Below are positions 1-1,940 of a stretch of DNA of 12,251 nt, in pieces. Within the stretch, counting starts at the first letter, position 1, and every line of letters starts with the position of its first letter. The DNA is taken from positions 1 to 12,251 of the forward strand of contig PWUY01000306.1 of the NCBI GenBank assembly GCA_003562415.1, in the 5' to 3' direction. This DNA comes from Anaerolineae bacterium (GTDB lineage: Bacteria > Chloroflexota > Anaerolineae > B4-G1 > SLSP01). The notes beneath the pieces were generated by a model. It saw only the letters and a program-made list of their open reading frames with translations, ran no database searches and was not told the origin of the DNA. A program made the translations under genes and the position numbers.

Positions 1-1940
1 AGAGGCGGAAGCTCCACCGCGCCCAAATCCTGGAACGCGCCATCGACGACGGTGTAGACGCCCAGGGTCGGCGTGGCGCTCTCGGCGCAGCGATCCACCG
101 GCAGCGCGAGGTCGAGCGCCGCGAAGCGCACCTCGCCGGGAGCCGCGTCGCTGCCGAGCCAGCGGTCGGATTGCGCCAGCAGCGCGCCGTCGCTGCCCCA
201 CAGCCGCCCGGTGAACGAGGGCGCGGGTTCCTGCGGGCCGCTGGCCTGCCACGCGACGTGCAGCTCCAGCGGGCGACCAGGACGCGCTTCCCCCATCCAC
301 CGGTAGCCCAGGACGCGCGCGCTACCCAGGTCGGCCTCCAGCGGCGTGTAGCCGAGCGACTCCGGCAGCGCGGTCAGCGGGCGGCGGAAGAGCCGGTAGC
401 CCCCGCCAACCGGCGCGAACGTCCAGCCGGGCCAGTCGTAGACGTGGGTGCTGAACAGCGGACGTTCGCCCGCCGTCTCGGCCCGCATCCGCCAGACCGC
501 GTCGTACTCCTCCCCCGCGACGGGGTAGACGTAGGCCACCTCGACGCCGGGGGCCAGGCCCTCCTCGGCTTGCAGCACCCACATCGGCGTGGCCCAGTGC
601 CAATCCGCCAGCACCAGCGCGCCTTCCGGGGCGGCGTGCAGCAGCGGGGCGACCCGCTCGCGGATGGAGGTATCGGCGGCGAGGACGGCGAAATCGGGCA
701 GGCGCGTGGCGAACGGGACGAACACGGGCAGGGTCGCCAGCAGGAGCAGGGGCCAGCGGCGGTGGAGGCGCAGCGCTTCGATGAGCGCGGCGCTGCCCAG
801 GCCGAGCGTCAGCGCCATCGGGACGTAGGCCGGCGCCAGGTACTCGATGGTCTGCGGGGCGCGGTAGGTGATGGTGACGAAGGTATGCGCGGCCCATCCC
901 ACGCTGAGGGCCAGGGCGAGTTTGCTTGAGGGACACAAATTTAACGCAAAGGCGCAAAGGCGCAAAGGCGCGGAGTTTTTCATTTTGCTCTTTGCCCTTT
1001 GCCCTTTGCCCAAGAGCAGCCAGAGCCAACTTGCGACGATAGCGGCGAGGAGCGGCGGCGCGAACTGCTGGCGGAAGAGCGTGGGCAGCAGCGGGACGCG
1101 CATCTGCAAGTCGGCGAGGGTGGCGAAGGCGAACATATCCCCGCCGAAGCCGCGCGCCAGGACGTGGCCCCAGAATCCGCCCCAGGTCGCCAGATTGCCG
1201 GGGGCCAGCGGTACGCCGGGCATCGCGTCGCGCAGGGGGAGGTAGAGTTGCGGGAGCAGCCAGGCGGCAGCGCCCACGAGGGCGGCCCGCCACCAGCGGC
1301 GCGGCTCGACGAACAGGCGGGCGTCGGCGAGGAGCAGGTAGGCGGCCCAACTCAGCGCCACGAACGCCAGCGAGGGATGATGCCCCACGCCCAATCCGAG
1401 CGCGAGGGCCAGTTCGCACAAGGCGCGCTCACGAGCGCGTTTGCCGGGATGGGCGGCGTAGTGGCCGAGCGCCAGGAAGCCCCACGCGGTGAAGAGCAAG
1501 GTCGGCATCCTGATATTGGCGATGGTCGCCTGCGCCCAGAAGGTCGCCGCGCTGCCCAGGAGCAGGGCGGCGATGAGGCCGCCGCTGCGGGCGGCGCGCT
1601 CGGTCTGCCCCACCACCAGCGCCCATACCCGCGTCGCTGCGTAGAGCAGGGCCAGCGTGGTGGCCGCGAGGGCCGCGCTCAACAGGTTGAGGCGGAAGGC
1701 CTGGCTACCGAGTAGCACGCTTCCCAGGGGCAAGAGGCGTGTCCACAGCGCGCCGACGATGGTGTAGAGCGGGTAGCCGGGCGGATGCGCAATCCCCCAC
1801 CCGGCCGCGATCAACTGGAACTCGCCGCTGTCGGCGGGGAGCACGTCGCGGGCGGTGGTGACGGCGTAGAGCAAGAAGGCCGCCAACCACAGGGCGGCCA
1901 GCGTCACGCGGTTGCGGCGGAAAGCGGTGGGGCGTTTCAT
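1..1940 (-). CDS. DUF2723-type (GT-C fold, TMEM260-like) polytopic membrane protein; about the first 646 codons, with the 3' end running off the left edge of the window
   Basis: Hand translation of the minus strand from the ATG at 1940 gives MKRPTAFRRNRVTLAALWLAAFLLYAVTTARDVLPADSGEFQLIAAGWGIAHPPGYPLYTIVGALWTRLLPLGSVLLGSQAFRLNLLSAALAATTLALLYAATRVW... This is the first ATG after an in-frame TAG at 1968-1970. The translation is hydrophobic, Trp/Tyr/Phe-rich and protein-like all the way to position 1. I checked the frame at 1500-1560 and across 900-1080. It is absent from the ORF track only because no stop codon lies inside the window. I recognise the N-terminal DSGEF...HPPGYPLY block as the DUF2723 family signature. 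The track ORFs 171..929+, 322..1419- and 999..1715+ are Arg/Gly/Pro-rich alternative-frame artefacts. Confidence 0.6.
   Translation of the reverse strand, partial: MKRPTAFRRNRVTLAALWLAAFLLYAVTTARDVLPADSGEFQLIAAGWGIAHPPGYPLYTIVGALWTRLLPLGSVLLGSQAFRLNLLSAALAATTLALLYAATRVWALVVGQTERAARSGGLIAALLLGSAATFWAQATIANIRMPTLLFTAWGFLALGHYAAHPGKRARERALCELALALGLGVGHHPSLAFVALSWAAYLLLADARLFVEPRRWWRAALVGAAAWLLPQLYLPLRDAMPGVPLAPGNLATWGGFWGHVLARGFGGDMFAFATLADLQMRVPLLPTLFRQQFAPPLLAAIVASWLWLLLGKGQRAKSKMKNSAPLRLCAFALNLCPSSKLALALSVGWAAHTFVTITYRAPQTIEYLAPAYVPMALTLGLGSAALIEALRLHRRWPLLLLATLPVFVPFATRLPDFAVLAADTSIRERVAPLLHAAPEGALVLADWHWATPMWVLQAEEGLAPGVEVAYVYPVAGEEYDAVWRMRAETAGERPLFSTHVYDWPGWTFAPVGGGYRLFRRPLTALPESLGYTPLEADLGSARVLGYRWMGEARPGRPLELHVAWQASGPQEPAPSFTGRLWGSDGALLAQSDRWLGSDAAPGEVRFAALDLALPVDRCAESATPTLGVYTVVDGAFQDLGAVELPP
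945..1011. repeat. Composite micro-repeat element lying in frame inside the DUF2723 CDS: 3x GCAAAGGC (946-969), a 21-nt AT-rich spacer, then 3x TTTGCCC (991-1011), which is the inverted complement
   Basis: Read directly: cGCAAAGGcGCAAAGGcGCAAAGGcgcggagtttttcattttgctcTTTGCCCTTTGCCCTTTGCCC. The element sits in a roughly 93-bp AT-rich block (about 921-1013) inside a gene that is otherwise about 70% GC. The CDS frame reads through it with no stop: ...LLLGKGQRAKSKMKNSAPLRLCAFALNLCPSSKLALAL... Confidence 0.7.

Follow-up and report, generated by a model that had tools for sequence, protein, structure and literature searches.

Rickettsia palindromic elements (RPEs) form families of about 100-150 bp, each with its own conserved sequence and peptide, and are restricted to Rickettsia (PMC10969869). 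In-frame fusions are also made by MITEs, including ERIC, BOX, Correia and others (PMC10969869). REP and REPIN sequences are GTAG- or CGTC-tagged palindromes that RAYT transposases mobilise and that lie mostly between genes and occasionally within them (PMC3116915, PMC3733652). Repeats of a different kind are the heptamer-class LSSRs, such as the cyanobacterial STRR, GGGAATC in Xanthomonas, GGGGAYT in Nostoc and TAACTGA in Beggiatoaceae. Their copy number ranges from a few to some tens, and most lie between genes, often a short way upstream of one; length and sequence vary strongly among close relatives, and some occur as inverted pairs that could form stem-loops (PMC4692102, PMC4679880). In these reports the arrays are treated as intergenic, and genes are noted to contain few units whose length is not a multiple of three (PMC4692102, PMC4679880). 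An excess of heptamer arrays in prokaryotes was reported in 2007, and in the searched literature a conjecture of polymerase slippage is the only explanation offered (PMC4679880, PMC4692102, citing Mrazek 2007).

A repeat block inside a membrane glycosyltransferase gene

The window analysed here, a stretch of 12,251 nt from an Anaerolineae genome (contig PWUY01000306.1), contains the 5′ part of a membrane glycosyltransferase gene (Table 1), which starts at an ATG at position 1940 on the minus strand and is truncated by the left window end. The full-length protein (P0001) has 872 aa, is matched by the window translation at 100%, and is assigned by Pfam to TMEM260-like/DUF2723 (PF11028, E = 1.9e-22). 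A sequence-only reading had placed a 93-bp block of exactly 31 codons in frame within this gene, and translation and the Pfam match confirm it: the host frame is open throughout, and the block is read as LGKGQRAKSKMKNSAPLRLCAFALNLCPSSK. Its GC content, given earlier as about 40%, was computed as 48%, against 72.6% in the rest of the gene. Identical element sequence is found in ENA, in NCBI GCA_007130345.1 and in Logan SRR7083929, and the agreement of these three independent assemblies excludes an assembly artefact.

The block has the design described from the sequence, with three 8-nt units, an 11-nt spacer and an inverted array of about four 7-nt units. Tandem Repeats Finder reports the octamer arm, on the plus strand, as 3.4 copies of CGCAAAGG (period 8, 100% match) and the heptamer arm as 4.0 copies of TTTGCCC (period 7, 95% match), and neither array, not being expected by chance, turned up in any of 200 dinucleotide-shuffled versions of the window. 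The arms differ in period, 8 nt in one and 7 nt in the other, so that a single base bulges out of the stem in every unit. The predicted RNA fold is -35.1 kcal/mol, yet its z-score against shuffles is only -1.4, because shuffles of equally self-complementary composition fold well too. Neither repeat unit contains a stop in any of the six frames, and both arrays have lengths divisible by three; loop and tail make up about 35 nt of non-array sequence. By direct reading, the gain or loss of one unit in either array would shift the reading frame.

Table 1. Positions of the repeat structures and of the host gene in the window
Feature	Position	Strand	Description
Host gene, 5′ 646 codons	3..1940	-	DUF2723/TMEM260-like (GT-C type) membrane glycosyltransferase
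93-nt (31-codon) block	921..1013	-	Delimited by protein and DNA alignment against empty orthologues
Element tail	927..944	-	Coding strand, with the last GCG of the array: GCGTTAAATTTGTGTCCCTCA
Octamer arm	945..972	-	Coding strand (GCGCCTTT)x3, peptide APLRLCAF
Spacer or loop between arrays	973..983	-	Coding-strand sequence across it CAAAATGAAAAACTCC; from the fold
Heptamer arm	984..1011	-	Coding strand (GGGCAAA)x3 plus degenerate GAGCAAA, peptide GKGQRAK
Left arm of second tandem-plus-inverted structure	9151..9194	+	(AACGTSA)x6, intergenic
Right arm of second structure	9282..9320	+	(TGACGYY / ACGTTTG)n, with a promoter-like site a short way downstream

A lineage-specific insertion in a loop

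Alignment with orthologues, suggested earlier as a check, shows that the block is an in-frame insertion peculiar to its lineage, which became fixed in an ancestor common to three closely related lineages of Anaerolineae. More specifically, the spacing between two anchors is 92 aa in the window protein and 66 aa in 116 of 122 orthologues, where the loop is short. Only P0001, P0122, P0123, P0002 and P0121 carry an insert, which limits inserts to the window species and two close relatives; in a further orthologue (P0073) the loop at the same place is longer by 6 aa. The gene tree is ((window, L130 at 93.9%), L002 at 87.3%). The 31 codons substitute for a 5-codon loop (RRDGK), a net gain of 26 codons (78 nt), and the empty site reads CTG CTC CGS CGC GAC GGC AAA CTG GCG in the orthologues. 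In the filled allele the insert is flanked by GGCAAA and AGCAAA, which is ambiguous as a sign of target-site duplication since GCAAA is also the core of the repeat.

The position between hydrophobic helices that had been anticipated is borne out by the AlphaFold model of the host protein (mean pLDDT 84), in which insert residues 315-326 fall below a pLDDT of 50, between helices 295-310 and 337-357. Applied to the helices of the model, the positive-inside rule makes this loop probably cytoplasmic. As read from the alignments, window and L002 agree in 71% of the amino acids of the insert, compared with 88-89% for the whole protein, in line with relaxed constraint. In related Anaerolineae, orthologues of the host gene have arrays of 7-8-nt units in frame elsewhere, at the N-terminus and in a different loop, and arrays of this unit size are common in every phylum sampled; the earlier description of the block as unusual in its phylogenetic context is therefore not upheld.

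Rapid change at the site

The arrays evolve much faster than the gene around them. At the same site L002 has three units of GGCAAAT and two of GCGTCTTT; a G to T change is found in all three units of its heptamer array together, and the hairpin is not kept (fold z = +0.9). In L130, about 94% identical, the same codon position is occupied by a near-perfect CACAGAG/CTCTGTG hairpin (-49.6 kcal/mol, z = -8). Together with its flanks, this module corresponds to the inner part of a composite element carried by an unrelated contig of 41% GC; CACAGAG/CTCTGTG is nested within an octamer module on L251 and adjoins one in L206 and L245. In the orthologues L127 and L128 the units drift by single substitutions along compound arrays. 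Such array changes presumably come from replication slippage. In three independent samples of the window species the block sequence is the same, and all recovered alleles are in frame, having been retrieved by protein sequence, a look-up that frameshifted alleles would escape.

Dispersed relatives of the block

The octamer pattern (GCGYCTTT)x3 occurs at no fewer than 120 metagenome loci, mostly intergenic, on contigs of 35-74% GC. The octamer arm and end of the window block match the family pattern …GCGYCTTT×n GCGTTAAA, and the GCGTTAAA part of the tail is the conserved end of this octamer-hairpin family. Across 128 arrays the tail consensus is GCGTTRAA, many members ending in GCGTGARA or GCGGGARA instead, and 60 of these arrays have an inverted partner within 220 nt. 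A blastn search gave 92-100% identity over 31-41 nt at many loci. Contigs L146, L156, L185, L190, L251 and L263 contain 2-7 arrays or hairpins each, with differing flanks, and a further in-frame copy lies in an NRPS-like ORF on L243. Counts of ORFs spanning the repeats in high-GC contigs are mostly artefacts, because the repeat units carry no stop codons, and only cases with a recognisable flanking protein were kept.

A paralogous half-copy lies in a sister genome, in the L002 lineage (L003 10067-10118), where 41 of 51 positions are identical, non-array sequence included; the alignment scores 57, and shuffled sequences reached 28 at most. The first part of the tail, GCGT(T/C)AAATTT, falls within this scored alignment, and the longer tail match AAATTTTCATCCCCTCA appears only in a gapped alignment of L002 with L003. 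Sequence next to the loop is common to the window and L003 (CAAATTAAAAAACTTC) and in part to L130 (..CAAAAAAC). Together with the multi-copy contigs, the half-copy agrees with the proposal that the repeats are dispersed. An array with the identical heptamer unit is found in at least 120 GTDB genomes, and among the 120 GTDB loci listed the matches to the window block are at arm level, with no orthologous locus or extra copy, in a listing from which the source species may be missing.

The family is variable outside its arms. In 56 elements, none with flanking direct repeats, the outer palindrome extends for 0 to 19 nt (56 nt in one copy) and differs in sequence between copies, even within one contig. 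Mirror units of the two arms are complementary at the variable R/Y position in 46% of cases, against 49% expected (54 family members); this chance level argues against the arms being homogenised with each other or selected to form a perfect stem. A blastp comparison, all against all, of 619 ORFs beside 129 family loci revealed no recurrent neighbour gene or transposase. The only clusters of these ORFs resembled, when the sequences were read directly and without Pfam, a phage DNA methyltransferase, an ABC transporter and a histidine kinase.

Tandem arrays of this size are widespread in general: period-7 and period-8 arrays, with many different units, dominate the tandem repeats of many genomes, at approximately one heptamer array per 8 kb. 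On viral contigs GCGYCTTT was found at 9 loci and permuted octamers at 1, 2 and 4; since the permuted octamers are only about 2-5 times rarer, the wide distribution may largely reflect a general tendency to form 7-8-nt arrays. No second copy of the element was present in the approximately 18 kb of source contig read, blastn of a consensus element against PLSDB plasmids gave no match (the low-complexity filter probably masks the repeats), Rfam models, applied at their gathering thresholds, had no hit anywhere in the window, and the unit sequences had no match in a full-text literature search.

Comparison with described repeat classes

Like RPEs, the block is a small palindromic repeat lying in frame and read through as an extra peptide, with other copies intergenic. 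It differs in that even sister lineages do not conserve the peptide and that the relatives sit in contigs of 35-74% GC; what the block has in common with the scanned loci is limited to its arms and end, and it was set apart from RPEs by their published descriptions. With LSSRs it has in common head-to-tail 7- and 8-nt units in three or more copies (period 7, 4.0 copies; period 8, 3.4 copies), and copy number and unit sequence that vary between close relatives, as seen in L002, L127, L128 and the intergenic array described below. Unlike the arrays in those reports, both arms are intragenic and in frame, and there is a conserved non-array end (GCGTTRAA) as well as a nested second module.

REP/REPIN sequences are similar in being dispersed hairpins in which a spacer separates two inverted halves. 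The octamer elements carry neither a GTAG nor a CGTC tag, their ends being TTYAACGC / GCGTTRAA, and the arms are tandem sub-repeats, whereas a REP is a single palindrome of 20-40 bp. Neither the genes called on the 18-kb source contig nor the surroundings of the 129 family loci included a RAYT or other Y1 transposase. As in MITEs, a short non-autonomous inverted-repeat element lies inside an ORF without breaking it (PMC10969869), and there are multiple dispersed copies per genome (the multi-copy contigs and the half-copy of the L002 lineage). Unlike MITEs, the elements lack fixed terminal inverted repeats, a clear target-site duplication and a parent insertion sequence, and their outer stem varies across the 56 elements. 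An integron attC site was considered because ATTTAAC and GTTAAAT in the window fit the core-site consensus (RYYYAAC, GTTRRRY), and was rejected, many family ends being off-consensus; integrase-linked cassette arrays were not seen at the family loci.

Origin of the insertion

The explanation that we favour, with reasonable but far from full confidence, is that the block was copied in as a member of a dispersed class of hairpin repeats and persists as a tolerated passenger. It would represent one copy within a class of small hairpin-forming repeats, each arm of which is a run of 7-8-nt tandem units, here (AAAGGCGC)n with an inverted partner and an element end of the form TTTAACGC...GCGTTAAA. Such an element may have arrived by copying or transposition from another locus, and not wholly by growth in place. 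Its tolerance would follow from the permissive loop, from units without stop codons and from arrays that preserve the reading frame, and the element itself may be neutral or slightly costly, with no function of its own. The sister lineage L130 now has a different, near-perfect hairpin module as its insert. Against copying stand the lack of a transposase near family loci and of a clear target-site duplication, and the copy-to-copy variation of the outer palindrome is not what would be expected of a transposon with defined ends.

A broader form of this explanation can be offered tentatively, as a possibility that we do not consider the probable one: the window element, (AAAGRCGC)n, and the L130 element, (CACAGAGNN)n, may be two modules within a family of hairpin micro-elements that is modular, undescribed and spread across phyla; its members would nest, preferentially target hairpin loops or one another, re-occupy the same site and spread with neither target duplication nor an adjacent transposase, e.g. 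by single-strand or template-switch copying. If true, such a family would quite generally give rise to the unexplained surplus of bacterial 7-8-nt arrays and to new peptide segments in membrane-protein loops. The locus provides a dated allelic series at one codon position (empty site, octamer/heptamer hairpin, units changed together, different near-perfect hairpin) that is tied to a modular element on unrelated contigs, so that copying and growth in place can be tested against each other with existing genomes. Arrays of 7-8 nt are a recurrent source of added peptide segments in loops of Anaerolineae membrane proteins, which is relevant to annotation and modelling.

An origin purely in place is rather unlikely, while retaining some real weight. 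Here slippage of GGCAAA would have produced the heptamer array and an intrastrand template switch its inverted copy, with no transfer between loci, and likeness to other arrays would be convergent. In its favour, the heptamer core GGC AAA is already present at the empty site exactly where the insert sits, the filled allele has GGCAAA and AGCAAA on its two sides, the arrays of L127 and L128 show units that drift by single substitutions, and period-7/8 arrays are abundant, permuted octamers also being far above chance. Heptamers are reported to be the commonest long simple-sequence repeats of prokaryotes, with slippage proposed as the cause (PMC4679880, PMC4692102, citing Mrazek 2007). What growth in place does not readily explain is the approximately 35 nt of non-array sequence, of which the loop part and the tail start are shared with the L003 paralogue, nor the GCGTTRAA end common to many unrelated loci, nor the match of the L130 module and its flanks to a composite element on an unrelated contig. 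In addition, the RRD codons of the empty site are gone, and the event was therefore not a simple duplication.

A function for the hairpin or arrays, either as a phase-variable switch of the glycosyltransferase or as an mRNA hairpin regulating translation or stability, seems improbable. In some pathogens glycosyltransferase genes are textbook cases of phase variation, which speaks for a switch, as do the frame shift that a single-unit change in a coding array would cause and the copy-number variation within the species of same-class arrays at the intergenic locus; for an mRNA role speaks the hairpin, strong in the window and very strong in L130. But each array has three units only, the sequence is identical in three independent samples with the alleles recovered (by protein-based look-up) in frame, the hairpin is not conserved in L002, the mirror units of the arms do not co-vary, and the inserted peptide is less conserved than the remaining protein. 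Finally, true membership of, or homology to, the RPE families has a negligible probability: the behaviour of a palindromic repeat in frame and tolerated in a loop, as described for RPEs (PMC10969869), is the part of the earlier Rickettsia comparison that stands, but the arms are 7-8-nt tandem units, the net gain is 78 nt where RPEs have about 100-150, no family peptide is conserved (window, L002 and L130 each have a different insert), the host belongs to Chloroflexota, and neither the Rfam scan nor the literature search gave a match.

A second, intergenic structure

The tandem-plus-inverted design recurs in an intergenic region of the window (9151-9320), in agreement with the sequence-only reading: segments 9153-9185 and 9282-9314 of its arms are 82% complementary, the fold has z = -3.0, and a promoter-like site (9343-9370) lies just downstream of the end of the right arm. 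The two structures of the window share no sequence and therefore do not form the one small family that had been suggested. The suggestion that such repeats are expandable holds at this locus, where the copy number of the left arm varies among contigs of the same species, with a gain of two units between contigs. In the L002 lineage the left arm is replaced by a (AGTCGGGT)n array, and the right arm is conserved. A separate repeat of the window, consisting of AGACTTCSGAAGTCT doublets, looks much more REPIN-like.

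An in-frame repeat element in a membrane-protein gene

The window (GC 65.6%; also ENA ERZ27301262 k141_1785676) belongs to an uncultured Anaerolineae bacterium (Chloroflexota), and the named proteins closest to its own come from Anaerolineae metagenome-assembled genomes. Within its gene for a DUF2723/TMEM260-like glycosyltransferase, the 93-nt block at 921-1013 has a GC content of 48%, a correction of the earlier estimate of about 40%, versus 72.6% in the remainder of the gene. Repeat finding separates the block into an octamer and a heptamer array, 11 nt apart, each with 0 occurrences in 200 shuffles of the window, and the host-gene frame continues across it, translated as LGKGQRAKSKMKNSAPLRLCAFALNLCPSSK; a low-GC block of tandem units with an inverted partner, read through in frame, is thereby confirmed. 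The arms pair with one bulged base for each octamer, and the fold (-35.1 kcal/mol) reaches only z = -1.4 because shuffles with this self-complementary composition fold well too. On either side of the insert stand GGCAAA (1005-1010) and AGCAAA (921-926), which specify Gly-Lys and Ser-Lys on the coding strand, where empty orthologues have one GGCAAA or GGAAAA; the pair may reflect duplication of a 6-bp target, joining at microhomology or a seed from which the heptamer grew.

Positions of features in the window and in other contigs
Contig	Feature	Position	Strand or setting	Remarks
Window	DUF2723/TMEM260-like membrane glycosyltransferase gene	ATG at 1940, open at left window end	-	Pfam PF11028, E = 1.9e-22
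Window	Octamer array, CGCAAAGG x3.4	945-972	+ strand reading	Tandem Repeats Finder
Window	Heptamer array, TTTGCCC x4.0	984-1011	+ strand reading	Tandem Repeats Finder
Window	REPIN-like doublet, three copies	1955-1991, 4117-4180, 5884-5916	all intergenic	tkt/DUF2723, within low-GC island, SDR/MVP
Window	Low-GC island (1 kb)	3951-5025	between transketolase and short-chain dehydrogenase genes	~40-55% GC
Window	TumE-toxin-like ORF	4573-4950	in low-GC island	PF20126, E = 4.6e-14; small ORF precedes
Window	Vault-like ORF, 879 aa	5925-8564	-	E down to 2.6e-66
Window	Second structure, arms	9153-9185, 9282-9314	between divergent Zn-ribbon gene and gmk	82% complementary
Window	Promoter-like TTAACA-16-TATAGT	9343-9370	just downstream of second structure
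L127	Compound arrays	4149-4311, 3093-3121	in frame
L128	Compound arrays	4073-4179, 3006-3058	in frame
L003	Partial second copy of element	10067-10118	upstream of pmbA/tldD gene
L263	Four copies of (GCGCCTTT)2-3 GCGGGATAATCTTTCTT	5356-9737		viral contig (IMG/VR)
L040, L046, L103, L128	(GGCRAAT)n then (YACGAAT / CGAATCA)n	2139-2230, 1190-1235, 404-480, 4073-4139

Lineage specificity and position in the protein

The alignment of 24 orthologues places the segment only in the window protein and P0002, the others reading ..WLWLLRRD-GKLAAA.. at this site. In all 122 retrieved orthologues having both conserved motifs GDM[FL] and YRAPQT, the spacing between the motifs is 66 residues in 116, 72 in P0073 (six additional residues within the same loop), 88 in P0121 and 92 in P0001 (the window protein), P0122, P0123 and P0002. 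Compared with the empty site (CTG CTC CGS CGC GAC GGC AAA CTG GCG), the filled one has a net gain of 26 codons and has lost the RRD codons. In an AlphaFold2 model (mean pLDDT 84.3, pTM 0.84) the insert follows helix 295-310 and precedes helix 337-357, and residues 315-326 have pLDDT < 50. Counting membrane helices from the basic N-terminus under the positive-inside rule, with basic residues in the short loops (KRARER, RRWWR, RRDGK, RLHRRW), makes the insert-bearing loop probably cytoplasmic. The insert is thus lineage-specific and lies in a permissive loop.

Read directly, GGCAAAG and GCGCCTTT are stop-free in every frame, as are their complements (unit peptides GKGQRAK / LCPLPFA for the heptamer and APLRLCAF / KGAKAQRR for the octamer), and an array of three units, 3 x 7 or 3 x 8 bases, has a length divisible by three, as has one extra unit per arm (15 nt); together these properties would explain why the insert is tolerated. 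Recognisable proteins in other genomes contain heptamer arrays translated GKWQMAN or GKGQRAK, and in L127 and L128, two more distant orthologues of this gene (DNA identity ~66%), long compound 7-/8-nt arrays are read in frame elsewhere in the protein, namely in the N-terminal tail and in the presumably cytoplasmic loop after the tenth helix. Their peptide repeats include RIMNHES and PSTVYRL, with SANQQISK.. and LPTPYSL.. encoded in that loop.

Alleles at the insertion site

By DNA identity of the gene, L130 (93.9%) groups with the window and L002 (87.3%) lies outside the pair, and three samples of the window species, independent of one another, agree completely at the site. The sister lineage L002 has GGCAAAT replacing GGCAAAG in 3/3 heptamers and GCGTCTTT in two of three octamers, and its hairpin has decayed (fold z = +0.9). 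At the same codon position the nearer relative L130 holds a different in-frame insert, AAAATCAC(CACAGAGNN)x3, loop, (NNCTCTGTG)x3, GTGGTAAATT, with a near-perfect 25-bp stem (-49.6 kcal/mol, z = -8.0). The site is hypervariable, and the inserted peptide is under weaker constraint: its identity between window and L002 is 71%, versus 88-89% for the whole protein.

The unrelated contig L251 (41% GC) links the two alleles: its octamer arms surround inner (CACAGAGNN)x3 / (NNCTCTGTG)x3 arrays, and the L130 insert shares the flanking sequence of these (TTTTCACCACAGAGA..., ...CTCTGTGGTTAAAAT). Octamer and (CACAGAGNN)-type arrays lie side by side in L206 and L245; in L161 and L239 the octamer arm has related (ATCTGTGNN)n arrays at its inner edge. 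The window and L130 alleles would then be modules of one composite, and, given this nesting and abutment, the apparent replacement at the DUF2723 site would have arisen either (i) from a composite ancestor by differential loss or (ii) by insertion of a second module into the first, the outer arms later being lost. A recent event in L130 seems favoured, because its stem is near-perfect.

A dispersed class of heptamer and octamer repeats

With one genome per GTDB species, (GGCAAAK)x3 has at least 120 matches in many phyla, where simple arithmetic gives a chance expectation of ~2. Background repeats were taken with Tandem Repeats Finder from 866 kb around the listed GTDB matches, >300 nt from each selected array; 106 of 214 arrays have period 7 and 30 period 8, with many differing units, and heptamer arrays occur about once per 8 kb. 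Adjacent arrays form inverted partners in 18 pairs (5.4 expected, shuffle maximum 13), including pairs built of unrelated units. Published work ranks heptamers first among the long simple-sequence repeats of prokaryotes and describes inverted pairs in Xanthomonas and Nostoc (PMC4692102, PMC4679880), and the abundance and pairing found here agree with it.

The octamer arm (GCGYCTTT)x3 has at least 120 matches in metagenome contigs; among the matches listed, GC ranges from 35% to 74% and the inverted partner (AAAGRCGC)n lies within 220 nt of 60/128 arrays. The octamer array is followed by a GCGTTRAA consensus, with GCGKGARA as the rarer form and TTYAACGC as its mirror image at the opposite side, and window positions 931-975 (ACAAATTTAACGCAAAGGCGC...) share 92-100% identity with such ends over 31-41 nt. 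Several contigs carry two to seven copies with differing flanks. Copies in general are mainly intergenic and often immediately upstream of a ribosome-binding site; one copy lies in frame within an NRPS-like ORF of L243 (..IRLCVFAPLRETNGISRKGAKAQ..). The partial copy in L003, of the L002-lineage sister genome, is identical to the window element at 41/51 positions, including the non-array loop part and the tail start GCGT(T/C)AAATTT (alignment score 57, maximum 28 among 300 shuffles).

In L263, three of the four copies adjoin a second small palindrome (GTCATCCTCGCGMAMGCGGGGATCC), and on the opposite strand the array stands directly upstream of a AAGGAAGAG ribosome-binding site and ATG. The combination of (GGCRAAT)n with (YACGAAT / CGAATCA)n recurs across different genes and genomes (L040, L046 and L128 being Anaerolineae MAG or metagenome contigs), which suggests that one unit mutates into the other by a shared route or that compound arrays are copied.

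Comparison with known elements

Rickettsia palindromic elements (RPEs), intragenic REPs and MITEs likewise are palindromic repeats tolerated in frame. The window element departs from each of them in defining features: it lacks RPE family sequence or peptide, a GTAG or CGTC tag (nor was a RAYT transposase seen on the 18-kb source contig or near 129 family loci), and fixed terminal repeats or a clear target duplication, respectively. The sequence-only reading was partly right: the in-frame palindromic insertion is real, but the element belongs to a widespread repeat class, not to the RPEs. By definition it counts as a long simple-sequence repeat of the heptamer class, with a conserved end, an inverted partner, nested modules and a place in frame within membrane-protein loops as additional traits. 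Rfam gave no match, and no description of the octamer hairpin, nor its sequence, was found in the literature searched. What makes the locus notable is its series of alleles, together with its tie to a modular element spread across phyla, rather than the insertion as such.

Origin of the element

The element was probably copied in from another locus, its arrays changing thereafter by slippage, a reading favoured by the non-array sequence common to the window element and L003, the end conserved over unrelated contigs, the contigs with multiple copies and the nesting of modules. Pure growth in place at the native site is rather unlikely, but it would account for the GGCAAA already in the empty site, the stepwise drift of units by single substitutions along the L127 and L128 arrays, outer stems that are unlike between copies even on one contig, and the failure to find a target duplication at element copies or a recurrent neighbouring gene among 619 ORFs; in viral contigs, moreover, permuted octamers occur at 1, 2 and 4 loci versus 9 (~6 distinct) for GCGYCTTT, all far above chance. 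A functional switch or regulatory hairpin is very improbable, as the two arms show no covariation of their mirror units (agreement 46%, expected 49%) and the L002 hairpin has decayed, both of which argue against selection for the stem.

Other repeats and genes in the window

The second structure (9151-9320; fold z = -3.0) shares architecture and dynamics with the coding element, but no sequence. It differs by two heptamer units among same-species contigs (Gmk protein 100% identical), and in the L002 lineage an octamer array, (AGTCGGGT)n, stands in for its left arm, the right arm being kept.

A REPIN-like doublet unlike the 921-1013 element (AGACTTCCGAAGTCT, loop, AGACTTCGGAAGTCT) has six half-sites in the window against 0.01 expected; it is missing at the L002-lineage tkt/DUF2723 junction and present in L130 (94% identical) with a different loop. 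The ORF pair of the low-GC island, a region without gene annotation by gene callers in L001, looks like an acquired toxin-antitoxin. The vault-like ORF has, in a Chloroflexota contig, the full eukaryotic major vault protein domain set (four Vault repeats, Vault_2, Vault_3, Vault_4 and MVP_shoulder), and in the L002 lineage (L133) a fragment bearing MVP_shoulder lies at the syntenic position.
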